Positions 4,744-49,552 of a stretch of DNA of 64,000 bases are shown here, in pieces. A program made the position numbers and the translations under genes. The notes below the pieces were generated by a model that saw nothing but the letters and a program-made list of their open reading frames with translations, was not told the DNA's origin and made no database searches. This DNA is from Solirubrobacterales bacterium (GTDB lineage Bacteria; Actinomycetota; Thermoleophilia; Solirubrobacterales; Solirubrobacteraceae): positions 4,362-68,361 of the forward strand of contig DAHUYL010000110.1 of NCBI GenBank assembly GCA_027315255.1, written 5' to 3'. Positions within the stretch are counted from its first letter, which is position 1. Each line of letters begins with the position of its first letter.

Positions 4744-5516
4744 GCGGCGCCGCGACACTCGGGGAGAGCTCCGAGCAGGTCACGATCGCGACCTCGCTCG
4801 AGCAGGCGGCTTCGCTCGACACGGTGTTCGCGCCGGTCCGCTCGCTGACCGCGTTCGAGGAGACGGTCGACCGGCTCGGCACCGCGATCAGGCTGGGGCT
4901 GCTTCCGCCGGGGACGAAGCTGCCGGCCGAGCGCGAGCTGTGCCACAAGCTCGGGATCGCGCGCTCGACGCTGCGCCAGGCGCTCGTGGCGCTGGCCCAG
5001 AGCGGCCACGTGCACGCGGTGCGCGGCCGTCGCGGCGGGACGTTCGTGGCCGACCCGCTGCCGCCGGCCCGGCCGCCGGAACCGGCCGTCGTGCGCGCCT
5101 GGCGCTCGACCTGCGACCGGCGGATGGCTGTCGAGGTAGGTGTCGCGGTGCTCGCGGCCGACCGTGCGGGCGGCGTCGCGCTCGACGCGCTCGAGGAGGT
5201 GGCGAGCGCGCTCGAGGGAATGCTCGACGACTTCGGCGCGTACCGCCAGGCGGACGTGCGCTTCCACGTCGGGCTCGCCGAGACGACCGGCAACCCCGCG
5301 CTCGTCACCGCGATGACCGAGGTGCAGGGGGCGATGACCGGGCTGATCGCGCTGATCGCGCACCCGCCCGAGGTGCTCGCCTCCGCCAACGCCCAGCACC
5401 GGCGGCTGCTGACGGCGCTGCGCAAGCACGACGAGGCCGGCGCCGCGCGCGCGATGGTCGACCACCTGCGGGGGACCGAGCACGTGCTCGCGGGGTTGAT
5501 GCCGGGGTCGGCTTGA
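4740..5516 (+). CDS. GntR/FadR-family transcriptional regulator
   Basis: ATG 4740 overlaps the GS stop (ATGA). HTH LPAERELCHKLGIARSTLRQAL; FCD domain DVRFHVGLAETTGN...QHRRL. Confidence 0.9.
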   Translation: MSGAATLGESSEQVTIATSLEQAASLDTVFAPVRSLTAFEETVDRLGTAIRLGLLPPGTKLPAERELCHKLGIARSTLRQALVALAQSGHVHAVRGRRGGTFVADPLPPARPPEPAVVRAWRSTCDRRMAVEVGVAVLAADRAGGVALDALEEVASALEGMLDDFGAYRQADVRFHVGLAETTGNPALVTAMTEVQGAMTGLIALIAHPPEVLASANAQHRRLLTALRKHDEAGAARAMVDHLRGTEHVLAGLMPGSA

Positions 5517-5598
5517 CTTTGTGACGATCAGCCGGAAGTATTCCGCCGCTAAGGACGGACCACAACACCTTTAGGGACACCCTTCGAGGAGGGCCGGC

Positions 5599-7212
5599 AT
5601 GAGCGTAGGCAGCACAACCGCAGCTGCAACCGGGACACTTTCGAAAGACGAGCAGCGGCTTGCTGAGCTGGGGTACAAGCAGGAGCTCCGGCGAGGCTGG
5701 AGCAGCTTCTCCAACTTCGCGATCTCGTTCTCGATCATCTCGGTCCTGGCCGGGTGCTTCACGACCTACGGGCAGGCGCTCAACAACGGCGGCCCGATCG
5801 CGATCTCGATCGCGTGGCCGGTGATCAGCTGCCTGATCCTCTGCGTCGCCTTCTCGATGTCCGAGCTCGCGTCGGCGATGCCGACGTCCGGCGGCATCTA
5901 CTACTGGGCGTCGAAGCTCGGTGGGCCAGGCTGGGGATGGTTCACCGGCTGGTTCAACCTGATCGGCCTGGTCGCCGTCGTGGCCTCGGTCGTCTACGTC
6001 AGCGCCGTGTTCCTGACGCTCCTGCTCGGCTTCATGAACGTCGACTTCATCTTCAACTTCGCCTCGAGCAACGGCCACTACCTGGCCCACGTCGAGTTCG
6101 CGATGTTCGCGGTGATCCTGATCGTGCACGGGCTGATCAACGTCTTCTCGAGCCACCTCGTGTCGCTGTTCACGAACGTCTCGGTCTGGTGGCACGTGCT
6201 CGGCGTCGCCGTGATCGTCGCGATCCTGATCTTCGGCCCCGCGCACCACGCGAGCTTCTCGACGGTGTTCGGCCACACGATCAACAATTCGGGCTTCGGC
6301 CACGGGATGTTCTGGTGGTACGTGCTGCCGCTCGGCTTCCTTTTGACGATGTACACGATCACCGGCTACGACGCCTCGGCTCACATCTCCGAGGAGACGC
6401 ACGGCGCCGACGAGTCGGCGCCCAAGGGGGTCTGGCGCTCGGTCTTCTACTCGGCCGTGATCGGCTGGATCGTGCTGCTCGCGATCACGTTCGCGTTCCA
6501 GAAGAGCAAGGAGCACGCGATCCTCACAACCGCGACCGGCTATCCCGCGATCGCGATCTTCCAGAGCGCGCTCAGCTCGACGGCGCTGAAGGTGGTCATC
6601 CTGATCTCGACCGTAGGGCAGCTGTTCTGCGGGATGGCGTGCGTGACCAGCGGCTCGCGGATGACGTTCGCGTTCTCGCGCGACGGCGCGATCCCCGGTC
6701 ACAACCTGTGGCGGCGGCTGGGCAAGAACCGCACGCCGACCTGGTCGGTGGTGTTCGTGGTCGTGTTCGCGTTCATCATCACGATCCCGGCGTACTTCCC
6801 GAACTCCGCAAACGTCCCGGTGGCGTTCCTGGCGGTCACCTCGATCTCGGTGATCGGCCTCTACATCGCGTACGTGATCCCGACGTACCTGCGCTGGCGG
6901 ATGGGCGACAGGTTCGTGACGGGACCATGGACGCTCGGCGCCAAGTACAAGTGGGTCAACATGATCGCGGTCGTGTGGGTGCTGGTGTGCGTCGTGATCT
7001 TCTCGCTCCCGTTCTCGCCGGGCGGCGTCCCGTGGAACAGCGCGTTCAGCCTCAACGCCGTCAACTACGCGCTCCCGGTCACGCTCGCCGTGATCGTCGG
7101 GGTGAGCGTCTGGTACGCGGTGTCGGCGAAGAACTGGTTCAAGGGGCCGATCCGGACGATCGAAGAACCCGACGCGGCGCCGATTCCGCACGGCATCGGC
7201 GCGGCACCATGA
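5599..7212 (+). CDS. APC-superfamily amino acid/amine permease
   Basis: About 12 hydrophobic segments; NFAISFSIIS, ELASAMPTSGGIYYW, TGYDASAHISEET, FAFSRDGAIPG. Confidence 0.92.
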   Translation: MSVGSTTAAATGTLSKDEQRLAELGYKQELRRGWSSFSNFAISFSIISVLAGCFTTYGQALNNGGPIAISIAWPVISCLILCVAFSMSELASAMPTSGGIYYWASKLGGPGWGWFTGWFNLIGLVAVVASVVYVSAVFLTLLLGFMNVDFIFNFASSNGHYLAHVEFAMFAVILIVHGLINVFSSHLVSLFTNVSVWWHVLGVAVIVAILIFGPAHHASFSTVFGHTINNSGFGHGMFWWYVLPLGFLLTMYTITGYDASAHISEETHGADESAPKGVWRSVFYSAVIGWIVLLAITFAFQKSKEHAILTTATGYPAIAIFQSALSSTALKVVILISTVGQLFCGMACVTSGSRMTFAFSRDGAIPGHNLWRRLGKNRTPTWSVVFVVVFAFIITIPAYFPNSANVPVAFLAVTSISVIGLYIAYVIPTYLRWRMGDRFVTGPWTLGAKYKWVNMIAVVWVLVCVVIFSLPFSPGGVPWNSAFSLNAVNYALPVTLAVIVGVSVWYAVSAKNWFKGPIRTIEEPDAAPIPHGIGAAP

Positions 7213-7219
7213 TCCGCGA

Positions 7220-8590
7220 ATGAGCGGAACGCTGACGGTCGTCGAGCCCGCCACCGAAGGCGTGCTCGAGGAGATCCCGCGGGCCGGCGTCGAGGAGGTC
7301 GACGCCGCCGTCGCGGCTGCGCGGGCGGCGTTCCCGGGGTGGCGGGCCCTCGCCCCGGGCGAGCGGGCGGCGCGACTGCGCTCGCTCGTGGCCGCGATGG
7401 AGGCCGAGCACGAGTCGCTGTCGGTTCTGGAGGCACGCAATGCCGGCAAGCCGATCGCCTCGGCGCGCGGCGAGGTCGGGATGGCGATCGAGACGATCCG
7501 CTACTACGCGGCCGCGCCGGAGCGGCTGCTGGGAGACACGATCCCGGTCGCCGGCGGTCAGGCGTTCACGTTCCGCGAGCCGCTCGGCGTCGTCGGGCTG
7601 ATCACGCCGTGGAACTTCCCGCTGGCGATCGCCTGCTGGAAGCTCGGGCCGGCGCTCGCGGCCGGTAACACGGTCGTGCTCAAGCCGGCGGAGCTGACGC
7701 CGCTGACGGCGCTCCGGTTCGGCGCGCTGGCCGACGCCGTGCTCGGTCCGGGCATCGTCAACGTCGTGGCCGGGCCCGGGCGCACGTGCGGCGCCCGGCT
7801 CGTCGAGCACCCGGACGTGGCCAAGATCGCGTTCACGGGCTCGACCGAGGTCGGCCGCTCGATCGCGGCGGGCGCGGCGCAGACGATCAAGCGGGTGACG
7901 CTCGAGCTGGGGGGCAAGTCGCCGAACGTGATCTTCGCCGACGCCGATCTGGAGCTGGCGGCGGCGAGCGTCCCCGGCTCGGTGTTCGACAACGCCGGGC
8001 AGGACTGCTGCGCGCGGTCGCGGATCTTCGTGCAGGAGCCGGCCGTCGAACGCTTCATGGAACTGCTCGAGCGGGCCGTCAAGTCGTTGCGGGTCGGCGA
8101 TCCGCTCGACGAGCGCACCGAGATGGGGCCGCTGATCTCGGCCGCTCAGCGCGAGACCGTCGCCTCGTTCGTCCCGGACGGTGCGCCCGTCGCGTTCCGC
8201 GGCTCGGCGCCCGACGGCCCCGGCTACTGGTTCCCGCCGACGGTCCTGTACCCGATCGCCCCGGATGCGCGGGCGGTGCGCGAGGAGATCTTCGGGCCGG
8301 TCGCGTGCGTGATCCCGTTCGCCGACGAGGCCGACGCGATCGCGATGGCCAACGACACGATCTACGGGCTGTCGGGGTCGATCTGGACGGGCGACGGGGC
8401 ACGGGCGCTGCGGGTCGCCCGCGCGATCGACACGGGCGTGCTATCGATCAACTCCAACAGCTCGGTGCGGGTCACGACGCCGTTCGGGGGCTTCAAGCAG
8501 TCCGGCTACGGGCGCGAGCTCGGCCCGCACGCGCTCGATGCCTACACCGAGGTCAAGTCCGTCTACTACGCAACTGGAGCCCGAGATTGA
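7220..8590 (+). CDS. NAD-dependent aldehyde dehydrogenase
   Basis: ITPWNFP, KPAELTP, FTGSTEVG, LELGGKSP, NAGQDCCA, EEIFGPV, PFGGFKQSG. Confidence 0.95.
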   Translation: MSGTLTVVEPATEGVLEEIPRAGVEEVDAAVAAARAAFPGWRALAPGERAARLRSLVAAMEAEHESLSVLEARNAGKPIASARGEVGMAIETIRYYAAAPERLLGDTIPVAGGQAFTFREPLGVVGLITPWNFPLAIACWKLGPALAAGNTVVLKPAELTPLTALRFGALADAVLGPGIVNVVAGPGRTCGARLVEHPDVAKIAFTGSTEVGRSIAAGAAQTIKRVTLELGGKSPNVIFADADLELAAASVPGSVFDNAGQDCCARSRIFVQEPAVERFMELLERAVKSLRVGDPLDERTEMGPLISAAQRETVASFVPDGAPVAFRGSAPDGPGYWFPPTVLYPIAPDARAVREEIFGPVACVIPFADEADAIAMANDTIYGLSGSIWTGDGARALRVARAIDTGVLSINSNSSVRVTTPFGGFKQSGYGRELGPHALDAYTEVKSVYYATGARD

Positions 8591-9330
8591 GTCGCTTGTC
8601 CGAGAAGGTGTGCGTGATCACCGGCGCGGCCGGTGGGATCGGTCGCGCGACGGCGGAGCGCTTCGCCGCCGAGGGCGCCCGCGTGGTCGGCGTCGACCTG
8701 CGCCAGCACGAGGTCGGCGCGCTCGCGTTGAGCGCCGACCTGACCGACGAGGCAGCGGTCGCCGAGCTGTACGGGCGGATCCGCTCCGAGCTCGGCCGGA
8801 TCGACGTGCTGTTCAACAACGCCGGGATCTCGCCGACGGACGACGCCTCGGTGCTCGACACCTCACTCGAGGCGTGGGAGCGGGTGCAGGCCGCGAACCT
8901 GCGCAGCGTGTTCCTGTGCTGCAAGCACGGGATCCCGCACCTGCTCGAGGGCGCAGGAGGGTCGGTGATCAACACCGCCTCGTTCGTGGCGGTGCTCGGC
9001 GCCGCCACGTCGCAGATCTCCTACACGGCGTCGAAGGGCGGCGTGCTGGCGCTGAGCCGCGAGCTGGGAGTCGAGTTCGCGCGCCGCGGCGTGCGGGTGA
9101 ACGCGCTGTGCCCGGGGCCGGTCGACACGCCGCTGCTGCGCGAGCTGTACGCCAAGGACCCGGAGCAGGCAGCCCGCCGGCTCGTGCACGTGCCGATGGG
9201 CCGCTTCGGCCGTGCCGAGGAGATCGCCGCGGCGGCGCTGTTCCTGGCCAGCGACGACTCGTCGTTCATGACCGCCCAGGCGCTGCTCGTCGACGGCGGG
9301 ATCGCGGGCGCTTACACGACGCCGCTCTGA
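8587..9330 (+). CDS. Short-chain dehydrogenase/reductase
   Basis: TTG 8587 overlaps the ALDH stop (TTGA). TGAAGGIG, FNNAG, YTASKGG, NALCPGPVDT. Confidence 0.92.
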   Translation: MSRLSEKVCVITGAAGGIGRATAERFAAEGARVVGVDLRQHEVGALALSADLTDEAAVAELYGRIRSELGRIDVLFNNAGISPTDDASVLDTSLEAWERVQAANLRSVFLCCKHGIPHLLEGAGGSVINTASFVAVLGAATSQISYTASKGGVLALSRELGVEFARRGVRVNALCPGPVDTPLLRELYAKDPEQAARRLVHVPMGRFGRAEEIAAAALFLASDDSSFMTAQALLVDGGIAGAYTTPL

Positions 9331-9398: not shown

Positions 9399-9869
9399 GT
9401 GATTCCCGGAGTTCCGCCGCCCGGCGACAGCGACCGGGACATGCCGGGGATGCACCCGGTGCTCGCAGGCCACACCGGCTTTCTCCTGAGTCGCGTCGGC
9501 GGCAAGGCGCGCAGGCGGTTCGCGGCCAGGCTGGCGGACGTCGGCCTCAACTTCAGGATGTGGGGCGCGCTCAGCGTGCTCGACGCCGAGGGGCCGATCA
9601 CGCAGCAGGCGCTCGGGCGCTGCGTCGGGATCGACCCGAGCTCGATGGTGGCGACGATCGACGCGCTCGAGGCGGCCGGCCTGGTCGAGCGCCGCCCGCA
9701 CCCGTCCGATCGCCGGGCACACGCGCTGGCGATCACCCCCGCCGGCCGTGCCACGCTCGCCGACGGGCGCCGGCTCGCCGCCGACGCGCAGGAGGAGCTG
9801 CTGTCGCTGCTGAGCGCCGAGGAGCGCGGGCAGCTGCACCAGACGTTGCTGAAGCTGGCTACCGCCTGA
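9399..9869 (+). CDS. MarR-family regulator (start may be ATG 9441)
   Basis: GPITQQALGRCVGIDPSSMVATIDALEAAGLVERRPHPSDRRA...ITPAG winged helix. Confidence 0.9.
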   Translation: MIPGVPPPGDSDRDMPGMHPVLAGHTGFLLSRVGGKARRRFAARLADVGLNFRMWGALSVLDAEGPITQQALGRCVGIDPSSMVATIDALEAAGLVERRPHPSDRRAHALAITPAGRATLADGRRLAADAQEELLSLLSAEERGQLHQTLLKLATA

Positions 9870-11438
9870 TCACGCAGGGGCGGGCGTGCGTCGCCGGCGG
9901 CGCAGCTCGCGCGCGGCCGTGTAGCGCTCGCGCGCGTGCTGGGTCGCGAGCGCACTCCCGACTCCGAGCAGGGTCCAGGTGACGGGATCCTCGAGGAAGT
10001 CGGCATACAGCATCGTGTGCATCACGAGCGCGAGGAAGGCCGCGGCGATCGCGGCCCGGGCCGGCAGCGCGCCGCTCGAGTCGAACACCGTCCGCAGGGC
10101 CGTGAGGACGAGCGCCAGGTAGACGATCAGCCCGAGCAGCCCCTGCTCGGCGGCGACCGTGATCGGGATCGTATGAGAGTCCGACAGCGAGCTCGAGATC
10201 GCCGGGTTCTGATGCTTGTACTCGACCGAGAAGCCGCCCGAGCCGTAGCCGTACAGCCACTCGTCGCCGAACATGCGCAGGCCGCCGGTGATCAGGTTGG
10301 CGCGACCGCTGGAGGCATTGTTGAGCCCCTGGTTGAGGCCGAACGTCTTCGGCGAGATCGCGACCGCGGCGCCCCCGAGCACGAGCACGGCGGCGGCCGC
10401 GATCAGCACCGGGCGCATCCGCCAGCGCAGCGCCGCCAGCGTCGCCATCCCGACGAGCAGCGCTCCCAGGCTCGACCGCGACAGCGTCAGCACGAGCCCT
10501 CCCCACAGCACCGCCAGGACGGCAGTAGCGGCCAGCTGCCGCCGACGGCTCGGCTCGTACAGCAGCACCGCGACCAGCAGGATCATCACGAGCGCCAGGT
10601 AGCGTCCGAAGATGTCGGGGTCGAAGAAGACCGAGTTGACGGTGAAGTACGGGTGATTCGAGTTGGTCGCGATCAGCTTCGGGTTGAGCAGGATCGACTT
10701 CGTCGCCTCCTCGACGAAGCCGAGGCACGCGAACACGACCGCGAGCGCCGCCGTCGCCACCAGGCAGCGGGTGAGCAGCTCGCGATCCCAGCTCAGCTCG
10801 CGCAACTGCCGCTGCAACAGCGCGAACGGCACGTAGAAGAACACGGTGTTGCGCAGTGCCGACTGGAAGTCGACGGAGTAGCTCGCCTGGAGCGCGTACA
10901 GCACCAGGAACGCGGCGAGCAGCTGCTCGAAGCGGTGAATCCCGGCGCCGCCGGCCACCGGGCCGGCGGCGCCGTCGTCGAAACCGAGCCCGCGGCGAGG
11001 CGCGGGAGCGGCGCGGCGGCCGGACAGGACCGGCACCAGCCACGCGAGCGCCGCCGCCGCGATCACCACGTACAACGGAACCAGCAGGTTGTAGGTGTGG
11101 CCGCCGACGGAGATCGGGATCCTGAACGGGAGCGCCACGACCGTCAGCGGCCCGAGCAGCCGCGGACGTCGTGCGATCGCGACCGCGAGCGCCGCGACCA
11201 GCACGACCCCGAGTGCGGCGGCCACGGCTGCGACGGGCGGATGACGGTGGATCACGTCGAGCTGGGGGGAGCGCCAGATGTCGGCCAGCAGCAGCACCGG
11301 CGCGAGCACGAGCGCTGCGAGCATCGCCCAGGCTCGGGAGGAGTCCTCGCGGGCGAGCAGGACCGCGGCCGCCAGCGCCGCGACGGCGATCACGCCGAGC
11401 CGCGGAAGCGGGCCAGTCAGCACGGCGAACGCGATCAC
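9870..11438 (-). CDS. O-antigen ligase/Wzy_C-like membrane protein
   Basis: Polytopic; VFFDPDIFGRYL, LTLSRSSL, SSGR...GYGSGGF...DSHTIPITVAAEQGLLG (Wzy_C-like periplasmic loop with conserved His). Confidence 0.8.
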   Translation of the reverse strand: MIAFAVLTGPLPRLGVIAVAALAAAVLLAREDSSRAWAMLAALVLAPVLLLADIWRSPQLDVIHRHPPVAAVAAALGVVLVAALAVAIARRPRLLGPLTVVALPFRIPISVGGHTYNLLVPLYVVIAAAALAWLVPVLSGRRAAPAPRRGLGFDDGAAGPVAGGAGIHRFEQLLAAFLVLYALQASYSVDFQSALRNTVFFYVPFALLQRQLRELSWDRELLTRCLVATAALAVVFACLGFVEEATKSILLNPKLIATNSNHPYFTVNSVFFDPDIFGRYLALVMILLVAVLLYEPSRRRQLAATAVLAVLWGGLVLTLSRSSLGALLVGMATLAALRWRMRPVLIAAAAVLVLGGAAVAISPKTFGLNQGLNNASSGRANLITGGLRMFGDEWLYGYGSGGFSVEYKHQNPAISSSLSDSHTIPITVAAEQGLLGLIVYLALVLTALRTVFDSSGALPARAAIAAAFLALVMHTMLYADFLEDPVTWTLLGVGSALATQHARERYTAARELRRRRRTPAPA

Positions 11439-41452: not shown

Positions 41453-43354
41453 TCAGCCGAGGAGCAACGGAAGCTCCGCCGCCGGGAGCGGACGCGCGAG
41501 CAGGAACCCCTGGACGCGGTGACATCCGAGCTCGCGCAGCGCCTCGAGTTGCGCCTCGGTCTCGACCCCCTTGGCGGTGACCACGCCTCCGAGCCCCTCG
41601 GCGATCGTGACCACGCCGGCGACGATCGCGCGACTGGCACCGGCGGCCGAGATGTCGGAGACGAAACCGCGATCGAGCTTGAGCCCCCGGAGCGCGCACC
41701 GCCCGAGCAGGCCGAGCGACGAGTGTCCGGAGCCGAAGTCGTCGATCACGAGGCCGATGCCCGCGCGCTCCAGTTCGGCTAGCTGGAGCGCGGTGACACT
41801 GTCGGGATCGATCAGGCGGTCCTCTGCGATCTCGAGCGTCAGCGACGAGGCGGCGACGCGCGCATGCGCCAGCGTCTGGCGCACCGACGTGGCGAACCCC
41901 GGGCGGCCCAGCTGGCGCGCCGACACGTTCACCGACAGCTCGAGCTGGCGGCCGGTCAGGTCGATCAGGCGGCGGATCTCCTCGCAGCTCTCGCGCAGCA
42001 CCCAGGCACCGAGCGGAACGATCGCGCCCGTCTCCTCGGCCAGCGGGATGAACTCCGCCGGGGCGAGATCGCCCAGCTCGGGGTGGTGCCAGCGCACCAG
42101 CGCCTCGACGCCTACGATCGCAGCGCCGCCGGGCGTCCCCTCGGCGAGCTCGAAGACGGGCTGGAATGCAAGCGTCGTCTGACCGCGCAGCTCCGCGTCG
42201 TGCAGCCCGCGCCCGATCAGCAACCGGCGACTCGCGCGCGCCGGGGTGGCGCCTTCGTAGAAGCGACAGTCGTTGCGACCCGCACGCTTGGCGGCGTACA
42301 TCGCGCAGTCGGCCTGGCGGATCGCTTCGGCGACGTCGACCGCCTCGTCCTCGATCAACGTCACCCCGACGCTGGCGGTGACGCCCGCGCCACCGATGCT
42401 CTGCAGCGGCCTGGAGACGGTGTCGAGCACCCGGTCGGCGACGTCCTCGGCCAGGGAGCGTCCGGTCAGGTCCTCGAGGATGATCACGAACTCATCGCCG
42501 CCGAACCGTCCGACGAAGTCGCGGCCCCGCAGGGACGCGCGCAGCCGATCGCCGACCTCGCGGATCATCTCGTCGGCGCGATCGTGCCCCAGCGAGTCGT
42601 TCAGGACCTTGAGACCGTCGAGATCGACGAACAGGACCGCGGCGGCTGCGCCCGGCGCGACGCGGCGCAACGCCGCTTCGAGCTGGTCGAAGATCGCCCG
42701 CCGGTTGGGCAGCCCCGTGAGCGCGTCGTGACGGGCGTCGTGGATCAGCTTCTGCATCGCGTTACGCCGCTCGATCGCGATCCCGGCCAGGCGCGCTCCG
42801 TCGCGCAGCAGCTCGAGGTGCTCGGGCTCGGGCCACCGCGGCGCCGCGCCGTACAGCGCGAACGTGCCGAGCACGGCGCCGTCGGTGCCGACGATCGGCA
42901 TCGACCAGCAGTGGCGGATCCCGCACCTGGCCGCGAGCTCGCGGACCGGCTGCCACCTGGGATCGCTCGCCATGTCCTCGCTGACGACGAGCTCGCCCGA
43001 CCACGCGGCGGAGCCGCAGCTGCCGACGTTCGGACCGATCACGACGCCGTCGATCGCGGCGAGCCACTCAGGCGGTAGCGACGGGCCGGCTCCGGGATGA
43101 AGCGTGCTCGAGTCACGGTCGAGCAGCACCACGCAGGGCATCACCGATGGCTCGCAGCGCTCGATTCCGAGCGTCAGTTCGTTCAGGACCTCGCCGAGCG
43201 GTGCGCCCTCACCGATCAGTTCGTGCAGCCGCGCGTGGCAGGCGACGAGCAGCCGCGCCCGCCGGCCGTCGACGAGCCCCTCCGGCGCGTCGGTGGACGG
43301 CGCTGGATCTGAGACACCGGGCAGCGTCGCGCCGGACGATGAACCACGCTCCAT
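41453..43354 (-). CDS. GAF-GGDEF-EAL c-di-GMP protein
   Basis: GSCGSAA (GAF), DALTGLPNRR, RGRD...RFGGDEF, EALVRW, DDFGSG, AKGVET. Confidence 0.92.
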   Translation of the reverse strand: MERGSSSGATLPGVSDPAPSTDAPEGLVDGRRARLLVACHARLHELIGEGAPLGEVLNELTLGIERCEPSVMPCVVLLDRDSSTLHPGAGPSLPPEWLAAIDGVVIGPNVGSCGSAAWSGELVVSEDMASDPRWQPVRELAARCGIRHCWSMPIVGTDGAVLGTFALYGAAPRWPEPEHLELLRDGARLAGIAIERRNAMQKLIHDARHDALTGLPNRRAIFDQLEAALRRVAPGAAAAVLFVDLDGLKVLNDSLGHDRADEMIREVGDRLRASLRGRDFVGRFGGDEFVIILEDLTGRSLAEDVADRVLDTVSRPLQSIGGAGVTASVGVTLIEDEAVDVAEAIRQADCAMYAAKRAGRNDCRFYEGATPARASRRLLIGRGLHDAELRGQTTLAFQPVFELAEGTPGGAAIVGVEALVRWHHPELGDLAPAEFIPLAEETGAIVPLGAWVLRESCEEIRRLIDLTGRQLELSVNVSARQLGRPGFATSVRQTLAHARVAASSLTLEIAEDRLIDPDSVTALQLAELERAGIGLVIDDFGSGHSSLGLLGRCALRGLKLDRGFVSDISAAGASRAIVAGVVTIAEGLGGVVTAKGVETEAQLEALRELGCHRVQGFLLARPLPAAELPLLLG

Positions 43355-43418
43355 GAATTAGAGATCGACCGCGCGGCTGCCTGCTTGATCGGTGGAAACC
43401 CGCCGTACACTTCGCGCG

Positions 43419-44516
43419 ATGCGACCGGTCCCCGGGCGACGAGGGTCCGGCACCCGGGCCGGACCCTCGGGAATCAGCGCGCTCGGGGCGGTCGTGCTGG
43501 CGCTGGTCGGGCTGCTCTTGACGCAGGCGCCGGCGGCGCGCGCGGGCGGTCGCGGCGACGCGCGCGTGATCGGGACGTTCACGATGCTCGCGGTCGTCAC
43601 CGAGGCGGTGAACGTGAACGGCGAGAGCCCCGGCCAGATCCTCACACGCGCGTGGGCGATCCGGCCGCGCCGCTGCCGGAGAGACTCGTGCCAGTCGCTG
43701 GTGCTCGTGCGCCAGCGCAGTGACGGCTTCCACAGCGCGCTGACGCTGTCGCGGACCGGGCCTGGAAGCTACGCCGGAACCGGCGTCTTCTACGTGGCGC
43801 TCCGGTGCCGGCGCCGCGTCTACCCGCTGGGCAGCCGGGCGCCCTACCGGATCACGCTGGTGGTCGAGAGATCGACGCTGATCGGCGGGATCAGGTTCGC
43901 GACGACGGTCGGGGCCACCTATGTCAACGCGGCACGCTCCGACACCACCCCGTGTCCGCTGGAGTCGAGTCACGACGCGGCGATCTACGCCGGCAACGTG
44001 TCGGGCGGCTTGCCGGGCGCACCGCGAGCGTCGTTCACCGCAACCGTGCACGGCGCGAGCGGCGCGGTCAGCTTCAGGGACACCTCGCGGCCGGGCCGGG
44101 GCAACGGCCGGATCGTCCGTCGCGCATGGTCGTTCGGCGATCCCGCTTCGCGTCACCGGAACACCTCGACGCTGCGCAAGCCGGTGCGCGTCTACAGCCG
44201 ACCTGGCCGCTACCGGGTCCACCTGCGCGTGGTCGATGCCGATGGGCTGAGCGCGACGACCGCCGCGACCGTGACGATCCCGGTATCGACCACGACGGTG
44301 CCGACCACGACGGTGCCGACGACGACGGTGCCGACCACGACGGTGCCGACCACGACCACGCCGACCACGACCACCCCGACGACGACTACGCCGACGCCGG
44401 CGCTGAGCGCTCGATCGTGGCGAGCACCCGATCGAGCGCATGCACGAGCGGGTCGATCCCGCCGGCGGCCGGCTGGACGACCGCATACAGGCAGCTGGTC
44501 CGGCCGTCGGCCGTGA
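43419..44516 (+). CDS. Secreted protein with a PKD domain and Thr-rich stalk
   Basis: Signal ending ARA; WSFGDP...VYSRPGRYRVHLRVVD (PKD); TTTVP repeats. Start could be 43392 or 43419. Confidence 0.7.
   Translation: MRPVPGRRGSGTRAGPSGISALGAVVLALVGLLLTQAPAARAGGRGDARVIGTFTMLAVVTEAVNVNGESPGQILTRAWAIRPRRCRRDSCQSLVLVRQRSDGFHSALTLSRTGPGSYAGTGVFYVALRCRRRVYPLGSRAPYRITLVVERSTLIGGIRFATTVGATYVNAARSDTTPCPLESSHDAAIYAGNVSGGLPGAPRASFTATVHGASGAVSFRDTSRPGRGNGRIVRRAWSFGDPASRHRNTSTLRKPVRVYSRPGRYRVHLRVVDADGLSATTAATVTIPVSTTTVPTTTVPTTTVPTTTVPTTTTPTTTTPTTTTPTPALSARSWRAPDRAHARAGRSRRRPAGRPHTGSWSGRRP
44288..44397. repeat. 15-bp tandem repeat (TTTVP x4, TTTTP x3)
   Basis: ACCACGACGGTGCCG-type units. Confidence 0.85.
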
Positions 44517-44841
44517 AGAACCGCTGCCACCCGAGCTGGCGCGGCCGGGTCACCTGAAGCTGGCTGGGCGAGAACTCGTGCGGCCGCGGGGCGGGCTGGC
44601 CCAGCGGCCCGAACAGGCCGACGCCGGGCCGGATCCGGTCCGGATCGCTGAACTCGAGCAGCGCCGCGAACGCGTCGCCCGGGCGCATGCGTCCGGTGGC
44701 AGCCCCGCCGTAGTCCCCGTCCGAGGGGAGCAGCGGGAACGTCGCGACGTGCAGCACCGGGCCGGCCTGGTGACGCCGCGTGATCCGGCCCTCCCACCCC
44801 GGCGGCAGCTCGACTGCGAGCCCGTGACCGGTGAGCCTCAC
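44386..44841 (-). CDS. Hypothetical protein, last gene of the mau-like operon
   Basis: GTG 44841 overlaps the mauF-like stop (GTGA). LAVELPPGWEGRI...LHVATFPL...DYGG...LQV...QRFFTADGR..CLYAV. Confidence 0.7.
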   Translation of the reverse strand: MRLTGHGLAVELPPGWEGRITRRHQAGPVLHVATFPLLPSDGDYGGAATGRMRPGDAFAALLEFSDPDRIRPGVGLFGPLGQPAPRPHEFSPSQLQVTRPRQLGWQRFFTADGRTSCLYAVVQPAAGGIDPLVHALDRVLATIERSAPASA

Positions 44842-45506
44842 GCCAGCACGGACACGACGGCCGCCAGCGCCACCAGCTCCGCTGCGACGACCGCGCGCCG
44901 CGCGCGCGGCTCGAGCCTCAGCAGCCGCCGGTGCACCGCGCGCAGCGACTCGGGATCCCGCGCGAATCGCGTCGGCAGCAGCGTGAGCGCCTTGCTCGCG
45001 CCGAACACGGCACCGACGGCCGCGCCGGTGAGCGCGCTGGCGCTCAGCAGCTCGACGGCGAAGGTCGCGTAGATCGCCGCGCAAGCGACCAGCGTGATGA
45101 ACCCGAGGCCCAGCTGGGCGCCGAATCCGAACCCGTAGACCCAACCCCGGTAGCGGGTCATCCAGTCCTCGTTCACCTGGCGCCGGGTCAGCGGCATCCG
45201 CCGGCGCAGCGGGGTTCCGTCGATGACCAGCGCCACGACCAGCACCGCAGCCACCATCGGCGTGCGCCAGCCGCTGCCGGGCAGCAGCGCGCCGACCGTG
45301 CCAAGCAACGTGCCGCCGGCCGCGCCGGCACCGATCGCCCCGACTGCGACTGCGGTCACGGTCACCCGCCAGGAAGATCCGCGCGCGCGTTCGGCGACCG
45401 GAGTGAGGCTCGCGAGCATCGACTGGCCGCATGGAGACCAGGCGGCACGAACCGCGCCGTGGACGGCGATCAGGCCCCCGATCAGGAAGAACACGAGCTG
45501 GCTCAC
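44838..45506 (-). CDS. MauF-like / DsbD-CcdA-like membrane thiol-redox protein
   Basis: AAWSPCGQSML (MauF-type WSPCG), RQVNE, GFGFGAQLGLGF, second Cys in LVAC. Confidence 0.7.
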   Translation of the reverse strand: MSQLVFFLIGGLIAVHGAVRAAWSPCGQSMLASLTPVAERARGSSWRVTVTAVAVGAIGAGAAGGTLLGTVGALLPGSGWRTPMVAAVLVVALVIDGTPLRRRMPLTRRQVNEDWMTRYRGWVYGFGFGAQLGLGFITLVACAAIYATFAVELLSASALTGAAVGAVFGASKALTLLPTRFARDPESLRAVHRRLLRLEPRARRAVVAAELVALAAVVSVLA

Positions 45507-46192
45507 GGACGCTCCTCCGGCTGCCGGGACGGATACAGGCTCGGGTGCCCGGCGGCGATCCCGGAGACCGCCAGCGCCCGGTCGGCGCGCGCGGCGCGCT
45601 CGGCGGTCGTCCGCGCCCCGTGCAGTGCGCTGTCATCGCGCGCGTCGCGCAGGAGCGCGGTGATCTGCTCCCAGCTGCCGGCGCTGCCTCGCCCGATCAC
45701 GCCCTCCCCACCGCCGACCAGCACGAAATGCGGTGTCGCTGGGACGGCCATCTCCTCCCAGGCCTCGGTCGACATGACGAGCTCGACGCCGCGCGGGGCG
45801 AGCTCGAGCAGCCGCGCCAGCCGTTCTCGCTCGGGACCCTTGGTGACGACCACGAGCCGGGCGTCCAGGCGGAGCTCGGCCGGCTCGTGCAGGCCGGACC
45901 ACAGCGGCTCGCAGGCCGTGCAACCGCTGCTGAGGAACGCGAGCAGGGTCGTGGGCGAAGCCGCGCCGAGCGCGATCTTGACGGCATCCCCGTCGAGCGT
46001 CTGGCCGACGATGTCGCGGACCGGGCCGCCCGCCGGAGCCGACGCAGCCGCTCCCGCCACGGTGCCGCGCCCCTCGAGCGCGCCGAGTCGCCGCAGGATC
46101 TCGGCGTGACTTCGCAGGAGCGCGACGATGAACAGCGCCGCAACCACCAGCACTGCGCCCTCGACCAGGATCGCGATCGTCGACGCGGTCAT
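45503..46192 (-). CDS. MauD/TlpA-like membrane-anchored thioredoxin-fold protein
   Basis: N-terminal TM helix ending LLRSHAEILRRL; FLSSGCTAC (CxxC); TPHFVLV. Confidence 0.8.
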   Translation of the reverse strand: MTASTIAILVEGAVLVVAALFIVALLRSHAEILRRLGALEGRGTVAGAAASAPAGGPVRDIVGQTLDGDAVKIALGAASPTTLLAFLSSGCTACEPLWSGLHEPAELRLDARLVVVTKGPERERLARLLELAPRGVELVMSTEAWEEMAVPATPHFVLVGGGEGVIGRGSAGSWEQITALLRDARDDSALHGARTTAERAARADRALAVSGIAAGHPSLYPSRQPEERP

Positions 46193-46195
46193 CCG

Positions 46196-47260
46196 CTACA
46201 CCCCACCGGCACCGGCAAGCTCGAGTGCATCGGGAATCAGACAGGCCGCGTCCTGGGCGCAGACCGCGTTCTCGACTGCCAGCGACGCGCTGCATCCGAG
46301 TGCCGGAACCGTGCTCGGGTTCTCGCACAGCACCATCCGGCAGACGACCGCCGTGACCCCGGCGACGTGGGCGTTGCACTGGCCGTAGCGGAAGACGTTG
46401 CACGCCACCCGCCGCTCGGAACAGGTCCCGCCCGCACACTGGCATCCGCCCGGGAACTCGGCACCCGGGAGCGCGTTGCAGTCGACGTAGTAGCGCAGCC
46501 CGTGCCCGGCGCACAGCTGGCTGCCGGCGTAGTCGGTGCACATCCACCAGCCGCCGGCGAACGTGCCCTCGGGGCAGCTGTTGAGGCCGCCGGTGATCTG
46601 GCAGCAGAACGCCGTCCAGCCGTCGGTGCAGAGCCCGTCAGTGCAGTCGGACGGCATGATCGCGGCGAGCGCCGTACCCGGGTAGAGCAGGTAGCGCAGC
46701 GGCGCCACCGCCAGCGCCGAGCCGACGAGCGCGATCCGCTGGAGGGCGGTGCGGCGCGTGAACCCGCGCTCGAGCGCGAGCGCCGAGCCGCGCGCGAGCG
46801 ACACCGCGATCCGGTCGGCGGCTCCGGCCTCGAGGCTGAAGAGGACGCGCCAGAGCGACGCGCCGATGACGGCGGCGAGCACCGTGAGCGAAGCTCGGCC
46901 GGGAGCGGCGCCGCCGAGCTTGACGATGCTCGGAGCGCCCGTCAGCCCCACGACGAGCGAGCAGATCGCAGACGCCGCTGTGAGCGTCGTCGCGCGCAGC
47001 GCCGACGCTCCCCGGGGCGAGTCGGCGCCGAAGCACTCACACCCGTCGAGTCCCGCCCGCCAGCGGCGGACGTGCGCCGCGGCGAAAGTCGCGTACACGA
47101 TCGCGAGCAGGATCCCGGCGGCCGCCCCCGGGATGACGATGGCGATGCCGGCCAGCGCCAGCTCACCGATCGCCAGCGGACTGACCGACTCCCTCAGCTT
47201 GACTGCGGCGGCGCTCGCGAGCACGAGCGCGAGCGACAGCACGACGGCCGTTCCGATCAT
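46196..47260 (-). CDS. MauE-like membrane domain fused to a Tat signal and an 18-Cys MauA (amine dehydrogenase light chain)-like domain
   Basis: GCECFG (MauE-type CxCFG), FTRRTAL at aa 167-173, CCQITGGLNSCPEGTFAGGWWMC...RYYVDCN. Confidence 0.7.
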   Translation of the reverse strand: MIGTAVVLSLALVLASAAAVKLRESVSPLAIGELALAGIAIVIPGAAAGILLAIVYATFAAAHVRRWRAGLDGCECFGADSPRGASALRATTLTAASAICSLVVGLTGAPSIVKLGGAAPGRASLTVLAAVIGASLWRVLFSLEAGAADRIAVSLARGSALALERGFTRRTALQRIALVGSALAVAPLRYLLYPGTALAAIMPSDCTDGLCTDGWTAFCCQITGGLNSCPEGTFAGGWWMCTDYAGSQLCAGHGLRYYVDCNALPGAEFPGGCQCAGGTCSERRVACNVFRYGQCNAHVAGVTAVVCRMVLCENPSTVPALGCSASLAVENAVCAQDAACLIPDALELAGAGGV

Positions 47261-47389
47261 CCTCGCGTGTTCCCCGGAGCTGCGCCCACTGGTTCAGATG
47301 GACCCCTCGATCCCACCCTGGAACATACCGGGTCGCGCCGACGACGACCTGCCGGCCGCGACTCCGGACCGCCGGCCGTCACGAACGAC

Positions 47390-47420
47390 GGAGGGCCCGG
47401 CACTGAAGGCCGGGCCCTCC
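47390..47420 (-). terminator. Hairpin terminator after groEL
   Basis: Perfect 12-bp stem GGAGGGCCCGGC / GCCGGGCCCTCC, 7-nt loop. Confidence 0.75.
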
Positions 47421-47462
47421 GAGACACTCGCCTGTTGGCGTTGAAGCGTAGCCCTCGCGGGC

Positions 47463-49094
47463 CTACATCATCCCCGACATGTCGGGCATGCCACCGCCAC
47501 CGCCACCGCCCGACTCCCTCTCCGGCACCTCGGCGACGATCGCCTCGGTCGTGAGGATGTTCTTGGCGATCGACGCGGCGTTCTGCAGCGCCGAACGCGT
47601 CACCATCGCGGGGTCGATGATGCCCTCGGCGATCAGGTTCACGATCTCGCCGTTGGCGGCGTTCAGGCCGTGGTCCTTCTTCGCCTTGCGGACGTCGTTG
47701 ACGACGACCGAGCCCTCGAGCCCGGCGTTCTCGGCGATCTGACGCATCGGCTCCTCGAGCGCGCGGAACACGATCCGCGCACCGGTCTTCTCGTCGGCGT
47801 CCTCGATCGCGTCGATGTCGAGCGCCTTCTGGGCGACCAGCAGCGCGACACCGCCGCCCGGCACGATGCCCTCCTCGAGGGCCGCGCGGGTGGCCTGCAG
47901 CGCGTCCTCGACGCGGTGCTTCTTCTCCTTCATCTCGGTCTCGGTCGCAGCGCCGACCTTGACGACCGCGACGCCGCCCGACAGCTTCGCGAGGCGCTCC
48001 TGGAGCTTCTCACGGTCGAAGTCGGAGTCGGTGTTCTCGATCTCGTTCTTGATCTGGTTGATGCGGCCCTTGATCGCGCTCCCGTCACCGTTGCCGTCGA
48101 CGATCGTCGTCGTGTCCTTGGCGACGACCACGCGGCGGGCGCGGCCGAGCTGGCTCGTCTGGGTGTTCTCCAGCTTGAGGCCCATCTCCTCGGTGATCAC
48201 CTCGCCGCCGGTGAGGATCGCGATGTCCTCGAGCATCCGCTTGCGGCGATCGCCGAAGCCCGGCGCCTTGACCGCAACCCCCGTGAACGTGCCACGGAGC
48301 TTGTTGACCACGAGCGTCGCGAGCGACTCGCCCTCGACGTCCTCGGCGATGATCAGCAGCGGCTTGCCCGACTGGATCACCTGCTCGAGCACCGGCAGCA
48401 CGTCCCGGACCGAGCCGATCTTCTGGTTGGCGATCAGGATGTAGGGGTCCTCCAGGACTGCCTCCATCCGATCCTGGTCGGTGACCATGTAGGGCGAGAT
48501 GTAGCCCTTGTCGAACTGCATGCCCTCGGGGAACTCGAGGTCCATGCCGAACGTCTGGCCCTCCTCGACGTTGACGACGCCGTCCTTGCCGACCTTGTCG
48601 ATCGCGTCGGCGATCACGTCGCCGATCTCCTCGTCGCCGGCCGAGATCGTCGCCACCCGGGCGATCTGCTCCTTGCCCGAGATCTCCTTGGACTGCGACG
48701 CGATGTTGGCGACGACCTGCTCCACGGCCTTCTCGATGCCGCGCTTGAGCGCCAGCGGGTTGGCGCCGGCCGCCACGTTCTTCAGGCCCTGACGGACGAT
48801 CGCCTGCGCGAGCACGGTCGCCGTGGTGGTGCCGTCGCCGGCGACGTCGTTGGTCGCGGTCGCGACCTCGCGGACGAGCTGCGCGCCCTGATTCTGGAAG
48901 ACGTCCTCGACCTCGATCTCACGGGCGATCGTGACGCCGTCGTTGGTGATCGTCGGCGCGCCGAACTTCTTGTCGAGGACGACGTAGCGGCCCTTCGGGC
49001 CGAGCGTCACCTTGACCGCGTTCGCTACCGCGTCGACGCCCAGCTCGAGCGCCTTGCGGGCCTCCGCGTCGTACTTCAGTTCCTTGTGTGCCAT
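47463..49094 (-). CDS. groEL: Chaperonin GroEL
   Basis: [48 protein letters not shown]-type tail. Confidence 0.98.
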
Positions 49095-49124
49095 GTGTGT
49101 TTCCTGGTTCTCCTGGGAGTTGAG

Positions 49125-49418
49125 CTACGACTGGACCTTGGCCAGCACGTCGGACTCGCGGAGGACGAGCAGCTCTTCGCCGTCGACCTTGATCTCCGTC
49201 CCGCCGTACTTGCTGTAGAGGACCTCGTCGCCTTCGGCCACGTCGAGCGGGGTGCGCTTGCCGGTGTCCTCGTTGACCTTGCCGTCGCCGACGGCGAGGA
49301 CCTTGCCCTTCTGGGGCTTCTCCTTCGCGGTATCGGGGAGGACGATGCCGCTGGCCGTCGTCTCCTCCTCCTCGATCGCCCGCACGATCAGTCGATCGCC
49401 AAGGGGCTTGAGCTTCAT
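49125..49418 (-). CDS. groES: Co-chaperonin GroES
   Basis: [34 protein letters not shown]. Confidence 0.98.
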
Positions 49419-49454
49419 CGATGAAACCTCCGGGATGTTTTGATGTTCCGTCCC

Positions 49455-49481
49455 CTGGCACTCTTCAGCCGAGAGTGCCAA
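49455..49481. promoter_or_regulatory. CIRCE (HrcA operator) 1
   Basis: CTGGCACTC-N9-GAGTGCCAA. Confidence 0.92.
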
Positions 49482-49525
49482 CGGCGCAATGATAGCCGGA
49501 TCCGGCGGTCCACCGCAAGCTGATC

Positions 49526-49552
49526 CTGGCACTCTCATTTACCGAGTGCCAG
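49526..49552. promoter_or_regulatory. CIRCE (HrcA operator) 2
   Basis: CTGGCACTC-N9-GAGTGCCAG. Confidence 0.92.

Follow-up and report, generated by a model that had tools for sequence, protein, structure and literature searches.

In methylamine dehydrogenase (MADH), the light chain MauA carries tryptophan tryptophylquinone (TTQ): W57 is the quinone Trp, W108 cross-links to form the cofactor, D76 and D32 are active-site Asp residues, and six disulfides of known connectivity are present. To our knowledge, the only MauA-type proteins described so far are the subunits that bear TTQ in two amine dehydrogenases of Proteobacteria. In mau clusters mauA is surrounded by mauE and mauD, whose products are cited as maturation factors of the cluster (van der Palen et al. 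1997). Here we analyze a 64,000-nucleotide stretch of DNA from a Solirubrobacterales bacterium (contig DAHUYL010000110.1; herein the window), in which one minus-strand open reading frame (ORF) joins a MauE-like membrane module to a Cys-rich domain through a twin-arginine leader. We regard this as a highly diverged variant of the MauA/MauE/MauD system with no structural neighbor, and we lean toward the reading that the single gene encodes MauE together with its dedicated, exported, MauA-related client, which lacks TTQ and would bind a ligand at the cell envelope.

Two further systems bear on the comparison. QhpC, the gamma subunit of quinohemoprotein amine dehydrogenase, contains cysteine tryptophylquinone (CTQ) and Cys-Asp/Glu thioethers, and its maturation needs a radical S-adenosylmethionine (radical-SAM) enzyme, a flavoprotein, and a protease. 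In actinobacteria, polytopic proteins of the Rieske Sco2149 type are inserted jointly by the Sec and twin-arginine translocation (Tat) pathways, and their C-terminal domains carry cofactors inserted in the cytoplasm. MauE has been characterized as a DsbB-like disulfide-forming membrane enzyme with a CXC active site and conserved Lys/Glu residues; it is proposed as a general DsbB substitute and seen as a widespread generalist, since only ∼10% of MauE-containing species have MauA, and fusions of both VKOR and MauE to redox partners are on record (bioRxiv 10.64898/2026.03.05.709764). A genome-mining paper describes Streptomyces mauE/mauD clusters with small Cys-rich precursors and treats them as candidate clusters for ribosomally synthesized and posttranslationally modified peptides.

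Architecture of the Fusion ORF

The preliminary description of this DNA dealt with positions 46196 through 46650, or approximately residues 204 through 354, which form the C-terminal part of a 354-residue ORF. Its C-terminal features were right, and every residue it quoted is present: TDG (212 through 214), GGLNSCPEGTFAGGWWMC (224 through 241), RYYVDCN (256 through 262), GGCQC (271 through 275), and FRYGQC (290 through 295). It did not extend to the MauE fusion, the leader, or the operon, nor to how large the family is. The features of the fusion ORF, with the evidence for each in parentheses, are as follows.

46196-47260, minus strand: fusion ORF, 354 residues, MauE module plus twin-arginine leader plus Cys-rich domain (ORF list, homologs)
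46823-47260, minus strand: MauE-like membrane module, residues 1 through 146 (Pfam PF07291, AlphaFold, hydropathy)
47033-47041, minus strand: C74-E-C76, the MauE CXC motif and proposed active site (conservation)
46664-46813, minus strand: MauA-type twin-arginine leader as internal linker, residues 150 through 199 (MauA alignment, conservation)
46751-46756, minus strand: twin-arginine pair R169-R170 (conservation)
46226-46663, minus strand: Cys-rich domain, residues 200 through 345, with 18 Cys (AlphaFold, family clusters)
46544-46549, minus strand: W238-W239, with W239 the candidate counterpart of the TTQ residue W57 (conservation, alignments)
46481-46483, minus strand: D260, candidate counterpart of MADH D76, within R-Y-Y-V-D-C-N (conservation, alignment)
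46373-46393, minus strand: F290-R-Y-G-Q-C-N296 motif (conservation)
46199-46225, minus strand: conserved Gly-rich C-terminal tail LELAGAGGV (homolog alignment)

The N-terminal module has hydrophobic helices at approximately residues 1 through 24, 28 through 65, 88 through 109, and 123 through 145, as judged by hydropathy, and AlphaFold models it with pLDDT (predicted local distance difference test) values mostly >90 (78 to 79 for residues 71 through 90). PF07291 matches 81 of 91 homologs, with a best E of 4e-15; its match to the window protein (E 2.6e-4, 21.8 bits) falls under the gathering score of 27. C74, C76, K21, and E33 are invariant among the 91 homologs. We set K21 and E33 beside the conserved Lys/Glu of the preprint by feature, not residue by residue.

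More than 633 homologs of the full-length fusion were found, the best 120 spanning 59 to 100% of the query; they come from metagenome-assembled genomes (MAGs) of Solirubrobacteraceae and are labeled only as hypothetical or as MauE/DoxX family. An origin of the fusion in an assembly or frameshift artifact was rejected, because 35 independent MAG loci and >100 protein clusters contain the fused ORF.

The linker between the two modules has the parts of a Tat leader in order (a helix preceding the Arg pair, R169-R170, a weakly hydrophobic stretch, and A197-L-A199), so it resembles a complete signal peptide but sits in the middle of the protein. In the fused subfamily the Arg pair is kept in 119 of 120 sequences and AxA in 119 to 120 of 120, and the pattern reads pre-RR helix, S/T-R-R-x-F/A-L, hydrophobic stretch, AxA. 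Stand-alone relatives exceed the cut-off of the Tat-signal model TIGR01409, and the internal leader of the window protein falls short of it. A182-L-A184 was also considered as the cleavage site and was dropped in favor of A197-L-A199, which follows the hydrophobic stretch and is kept family-wide. This arrangement recalls the Sco2149 type, in which several N-terminal transmembrane helices precede an internal twin-arginine motif, the last helix is weakly hydrophobic, and the C-terminal part forms a globular domain; unlike those proteins, the domain here would need extracytoplasmic disulfides, and the Tat route is a prediction.

A Five-Component Module Conserved across the Family

The fusion gene heads a tightly coupled operon in which three genes follow almost without spacing.

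45503-46192, minus strand: MauD-like membrane-anchored thioredoxin-fold protein, 229 residues (TIGR02661, PDB match, synteny)
45911-45922, minus strand: C91-T-A-C94 of the MauD-like protein
44838-45506, minus strand: CcdA/DsbD_2-like polytopic membrane protein, 222 residues, with Cys at 26 and 142 (PF13386, synteny)
44386-44841, minus strand: p151, 151 residues, no signal peptide, the fifth constant member of the module (synteny)

The MauD-like gene starts 3 nucleotides past the stop of the fusion ORF. TIGR02661 (MauD) matches its product with E 6.5e-5 and 22.5 bits, far under the cut-off of 188.6, and its best match in the PDB is the thiol-disulfide isomerase 3ia1 (E 0.024), whose CxxC is aligned to CTAC. 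The CcdA-like ORF overlaps the stop of the MauD-like gene by 4 nucleotides; PF13386 matches the 222-residue protein with E 1.2e-3 and 19.2 bits (gathering score 24.9) and an ortholog in the distant locus L084 with E 1.3e-4 and 22.4 bits. p151 has no match in Pfam, NCBIfam, or the PDB. Proteins of the p151 type have ∼145 to 170 residues and the motif HG[LI]..[DE][LV]P.GW[ED]GRI.RR near the N terminus; they are kept even where gene order differs, as in L084 (5916-6431), L085 (8986-9417), and L086 (7507-8004).

An exhaustive HMMER search with residues 196 through 354 gave 354 representative clusters at 50% identity (E ≤ 1e-3), so that the family comprises at least 354 clusters. A scan of one genome per species gave at least 599 pattern matches, of which at least 584 were confirmed; the best 80 of these all come from Thermoleophilia or from less finely classified MAGs of Actinomycetota. 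One family cluster is from Iamia sp. All members are unnamed in the source databases, and we found no description of the Cys-rich domain family in the literature. The domain occurs fused to MauE, as stand-alone proteins of ∼195 to 215 residues that start with the same leader, and in multidomain proteins of 400 to 740 residues, in which LGFP repeats, CWB2, DUF4214, B_lectin, or a PLL-type β-propeller come after the leader and domain. Two MAGs of Solirubrobacterales carry two paralogous modules each, one fused to MauE and one with a separate mauE (L010 with L062; L009 with L071).

Searching with the window proteins by tblastn recovered the order Cys-rich protein, MauD-like, CcdA-like, p151 in most of 83 loci. 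With an iterated hidden Markov model (HMM) of MauE, a MauE ORF was found at each of 86 loci, fused in 35 and separate in 51; the separate ORF lies directly upstream and stops at, or runs into, the start of the gene for the Cys-rich protein. The thioredoxin-fold MauD-like gene is present in most loci, and all five components recur, differently ordered, in the distant members L084, L085, and L086. No MauG-like ORF (two CxxCH motifs) occurs in the window or at any of the 86 loci. In a search of the loci, no MADH heavy chain (MauB) and no amicyanin or cupredoxin was found among the annotated neighbors in four contexts, and no flavoprotein or radical-SAM gene was found in those contexts or in the conserved module.

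Propellers accompany some of the distant members: in L084 the Cys-rich domain is fused to a PLL-type β-propeller (7001-8605), and in L085 genes for PD40/Tricorn-type propellers flank the module (9424-10296 and 5251-6414). The MADH heavy chain is a β-propeller too.

The Cys-Rich Domain

The domain contains 18 Cys, from C206 to C340, as the preliminary description had counted, compared with 12 in the MADH light chain. Residue conservation was scored over 118 diverse family representatives. W239 is invariant (118 of 118); W238 is Trp in 111 and Tyr in 7; D260 is kept in 117 and Y292 in 116. Three Arg residues are conserved to the same degree (R256, 117; R283, 115; R308, 118), and within the FRYGQCN motif F290 is found in 113 representatives, R291 in 105, G293 in 112, and Q294 in 100. 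F218, N227, P230, and G237 are likewise conserved. D213, which aligns to MADH D32, is Asp in 73. The Trp residues of the window protein are only those at positions 67, 137, 215, 238, and 239; the one downstream position at which Trp is frequent in the family, 316 (72 of 118), is not Trp here.

Sixteen of the Cys are essentially invariant, and the remaining two, C241 and C334, co-vary: they occur together in 23 sequences and never singly, from which we infer a disulfide. Joint loss points to two further disulfides, C273-C287 (9 of 11 cases) and C220-C340 (5 of 6 cases). The 18 Cys probably form nine disulfides; since the number of conserved Cys is even, none is obviously free.

A first AlphaFold prediction, of the full-length protein with a shallow alignment, gave pLDDT values of 35 to 60 for the Cys-rich part and was unusable. 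A second, built on 33 diverse sequences (model mdfa7dc1298e1), has a core pLDDT of 88 to 96 and predicts strands at residues 233 through 241, 256 through 263, and 304 through 311. Foldseek searches with this confident model gave nothing significant against the PDB (best E 3.7, with no MADH chain and no chain of aromatic amine dehydrogenase [AADH] listed) or against viral predicted structures (BFVD). The domain likewise has no Pfam match, in the window protein or in 91 homologs, and no NCBIfam match in diverse members.

The C-terminal tails differ among the loci L001 through L083. The fused subfamily ends in ..GAGG[VA] and the unfused paralogs from Thermoleophilia in QLPGGGG[AV]; a third group (L041, L056, L060, L074, L080, L082) ends in ..EF.W.

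Relationship to MauA

In the preliminary description the domain had been aligned by eye with the MADH light chain. We verified the comparison sequence as identical to PDB 1MG2 chain B, and hhalign reproduced the alignment in the same register, matching residues 224 through 279 to MADH 41 through 92 (1mg2_B, E 0.11). Against 56 genuine MauA precursors, hhalign gave a probability of 86% for the alignment of close homologs and of 97.5% for the diverse family set (E 5e-12, 105 columns). The family HMM scored 25 to 30 bits on >50 genuine MauA precursors and below 0 on reversed sequences. The alignment path runs through the pre-RR helix, SRRxFL, the hydrophobic stretch, and C..C.DG[YW]..CC..G.N.CP.GT to a C.C motif. 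The leader is the best-aligned part, and MauA leaders score about twice the bits of a generic Tat match. For the Cys-rich core alone, hhalign gave E ∼0.004, a score reached by 2 of 200 column shuffles (p ∼0.005 to 0.01), and HMMER a marginal 6.9 bits, compared with −0.1 bits for reversed controls. The global mode of hhalign gave a meaningless end-to-end alignment and was discarded. Searches of all PDB sequences with phmmer, and by profile hmmsearch with domain and family alignments, found no MADH match, only a weak match to the Tat leader of NosZ and a chance match of 24 residues.

Side by side with MauA (PF02975; 2BBK chain L, 1MG2 chain B, 2AGY chain D), the Cys-rich protein shares a small, exported, disulfide-packed design and a twin-arginine leader that is unusually long and has a helical segment before the RR. 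Both have the motif C..C.DG.(x)CC..GG...CPPGT, then a Trp ∼8 to 10 residues past CP.GT and (Y)-x-D-C, in the same order, and both are encoded beside mauE and a mauD-like gene. Unlike MauA, the Cys-rich domain has 18 Cys rather than 12, a C273-C287 pairing, no PF02975 match, no equivalent of W108, and no detectable fold match; the C-terminal half (FRYGQCN, VVCR.V.C..P) has no counterpart in MADH. No MauG-like gene lies near it, the annotated contexts showed neither heavy chain nor amicyanin, and the family belongs to Actinomycetota, whereas MauA belongs to methylotrophic Proteobacteria.

The profile probability, the HMMER bits, and the invariable pairing with mauE and a mauD-like gene support a relationship, and we consider common ancestry with MauA likely, the C-terminal half having strongly diverged. 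The claim of a MADH light-chain-like core stands only in part, as a most likely remote relative of MauA; the Foldseek search, PF02975, and the disulfide pattern gave it no support.

The Candidate Quinone Site

The preliminary description had also matched W239 to W57 and D260 to D76. A greedy hhalign path places W239 on W57, D260-C261 on D76-C77, and C273/C275 on C86/C88, and HMMER also sets W239 on the quinone Trp of MauA. The posterior confidence of these columns is low, and by default hhalign passes over GWWxC as an insertion, so the correspondence holds as the best available path and not as a confident one. From the predicted secondary structure rather than from coordinates, W239 and D260 could share one face of a hairpin, which is the arrangement of W57 and D76 in MADH. 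The lack of a W108 partner was borne out: there is no Trp past W239, and nothing aligns to W108.

The Cys-rich domain is thus probably a diverged MauA relative without TTQ, which we exclude because the second Trp is missing and there is no MauG near any of the 86 loci. A Cys-Trp link of the CTQ type (QhpC, LodA/GoxA), which had been suggested earlier, is disfavored, because the number of conserved Cys is even and the module holds no flavoprotein or radical-SAM partner. The comparison with QhpC has the same limits: both are small Cys-rich proteins of the cofactor-bearing type that depend on a dedicated maturation operon, but no sequence relation was detected, the even set of conserved Cys here leaves none obviously free, and the radical-SAM enzyme, flavoprotein, and protease are absent from the MauE-client module. 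A new cofactor on W239 is possible but unsupported; nothing in the module would make one.

A Proposed Client of MauE at the Cell Envelope

Starting from the observed architecture, residue conservation, operon, and family-wide pairing with MauE, we propose the following scheme. The Cys-rich client would be exported or inserted by means of its retained Tat-type leader and end up on the outer face of the membrane, where signal peptidase probably frees it after A197-L-A199. MauE would supply oxidizing power for its disulfides, and the MauD-like thioredoxin, through CTAC, would pass on, reshuffle, or proofread them, with the CcdA-like protein probably supplying it with reducing equivalents. p151 would act in the cytoplasm as an accessory protein and might be a leader-binding chaperone. 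In the mature domain, an invariant surface formed by W239, R256, D260, R283, Y292, and R308 would bind or act on an envelope ligand, probably an anionic one; a location at the cell envelope is suggested because relatives carry wall-binding and lectin modules. The ligand and activity are proposals drawn from residue conservation.

As in mau clusters, a module with the MauE Pfam signature, CXC motif, and conserved Lys/Glu is encoded together with a thioredoxin-fold CxxC protein of weak MauD similarity. Unlike there, MauE is fused to its presumed client or overlaps the client's start codon, and a CcdA-like protein and p151 join the two factors. The MauE of this family is apparently dedicated, in contrast to the generalist of the preprint (bioRxiv 10.64898/2026.03.05.709764). 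VKOR-thioredoxin fusions and the DsbB/DsbA pair provide a second parallel, in that a quinone-linked membrane disulfide generator is coupled genetically or physically to its partner; unlike the VKOR fusions, the fused partner here is a nine-disulfide domain with its own leader and not a thioredoxin fold.

Several observations weigh against this reading. The confident model of the domain has no Foldseek match to MADH or AADH chains, which counts against the MADH light-chain fold suggested earlier, and PF02975, carried by all true MauA proteins, has no match in the window protein (E ≤ 1) or in 91 homologs (E ≤ 10). By its co-loss pattern, C273, aligned to MADH C86, is paired with C287, a connectivity different from that of MADH. 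The leader accounts for most of the profile score, partly through generic Tat likeness; the leader of NosZ scores 13.6 bits against the family profile. The MauD and DsbD_2 assignments are both under curated cut-offs. Given the published orientation of MauE and the helix count, the domain would lie outside only if helix 147 through 166 also spans the membrane, or if neither that helix nor the leader does. A Tat-type leader on a nine-disulfide protein is paradoxical, although MauA presents the same paradox, and a cofactor site, too, would be expected to keep W239 and D260 invariant.

The first two of these points, together with the marginal core-only HMMER score and the weak match of the unrelated NosZ leader to the family profile, would fit a domain unrelated to MauA: a disulfide-rich secreted client of a MauE/thioredoxin folding system, possibly of new fold, whose likeness to MauA reflects a generic Tat leader and a Cys/Gly/Pro-rich composition. 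The Streptomyces mauE/mauD clusters with other small Cys-rich precursors agree with it, as does the report that MauE is widespread and mostly unlinked to MauA (bioRxiv 10.64898/2026.03.05.709764). We nevertheless consider it rather unlikely. Beyond the doubled score of MauA leaders over generic Tat matches, the match runs through a pre-RR helix of 15 to 20 residues; the core motif C..C.DG[YW]..CC..G.N.CP.GT is independently significant at the shuffle-based p given above; the order and near-spacing of several MADH Cys are kept along with the W and D-C; and the pairing of MauE with a MauD-like protein is the one that defines the mau cluster.

Near-invariance of W239, D260, and Y292 in very diverse members lends itself to another explanation, that of a catalytic MauA relative with a new cofactor based on W239 (a single-Trp quinone, or a W239-Y292 or W238-W239 cross-link), made without MauG (autocatalytically, or aided by p151 or by an unlinked enzyme) and oxidizing an amine or similar substrate at the envelope. 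The best alignment paths place W239 on the quinone Trp and D260-C261 on D76-C77; strands 233 through 241 and 256 through 263, as predicted, could form a hairpin with W239 and D260 on the same side; the domain precedes wall-binding repeats in relatives, the usual place of catalytic domains; and carrying a Trp-derived quinone is the sole role of MauA-type proteins that we know of. This explanation is nonetheless quite unlikely, as the conserved module has no oxygenase, heme, flavin, or radical-SAM gene, the neighborhood encodes no electron acceptor, Asp fills the D32 position in only 73 of 118 representatives, the even number of conserved Cys leaves none for a CTQ-type link, and the W57/D76 columns are of low confidence with no fold match found. 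Taken further, the family could add to the Trp-quinone-type proteins a third branch, in actinobacteria, consisting of a cell-envelope oxidase descended from MauA, with a new cofactor derived from W239 (cross-linked to Y292 or W238, or not cross-linked) and a need for neither MauG nor heavy chain, its MauE-fused form perhaps a Sec/Tat-inserted polyprotein cut to release the domain; we hold this to be improbable.

That the domain is part of a redox relay, a disulfide carrier or electron buffer on MauE comparable to the thioredoxin fused to VKOR or the second periplasmic loop of DsbB, is very improbable: it is fused to MauE in 35 loci and otherwise always adjoins it, MauE has only one CXC pair, and VKOR and MauE fusions to redox partners are known, but the domain has its own cleavable-looking Tat leader, in many members it is joined to wall-binding or lectin domains, at a distance from the membrane, the module already includes a separate thioredoxin-fold protein, and the invariant non-Cys residues (W, D, Y, and three to four Arg) suggest a site for a ligand more than a simple relay of thiols.

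On the favored reading of a dedicated MauA-related client, the family retains the leader of MauA, its partnership with MauE/MauD, and candidates for the quinone Trp and Asp, and it lacks the cross-link partner and, at the loci covered, the heavy chain and MauG. It would either show, as a natural example, what this scaffold does when TTQ is absent, or carry a protein-derived cofactor not yet discovered. For oxidative folding, it links MauE in these Actinomycetota, through fusion or overlapping start and stop codons, to a single hidden MauA-like client. Because the confident model has no structural neighbor in the PDB, the domain is a good target for structure determination.

Neighboring Genes and Minor Observations

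Three further features flank the operon.

43392-44516, plus strand: secreted PKD-domain protein with a Thr/Pro repeat tail (TTTVP)n, converging on the operon (PF18911, E 4e-11)
47463-49538, minus strand: groES (Cpn10) and groEL (Cpn60), directly upstream of the operon
41453-43354, minus strand: 633-residue ORF with GAF-like, GGDEF (RFGGDEFVI), and EAL (EALVRW) signatures (read from the translation only)

The PKD protein is a syntenic neighbor in most Thermoleophilia loci and is absent from the annotated gene lists of L084 through L086; its membership in the module is uncertain. The groES-groEL neighborhood is not kept in relatives, and L001, for example, has a cupin gene in its place. From its signatures, the 633-residue ORF probably encodes a protein of cyclic-di-GMP turnover.

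A search of sequencing runs for evidence of expression gave only DNA metagenomes (mine drainage, soil) and no RNA run; positions 45503 through 47260 occur with identical sequence in contigs of mine-drainage and soil metagenome runs. Very long antisense ORFs lie across real genes in the window, such as one of 707 residues over the fusion gene (45431-47554, plus strand); such ORFs are typical of high-GC DNA, and homologs back the minus-strand reading only.

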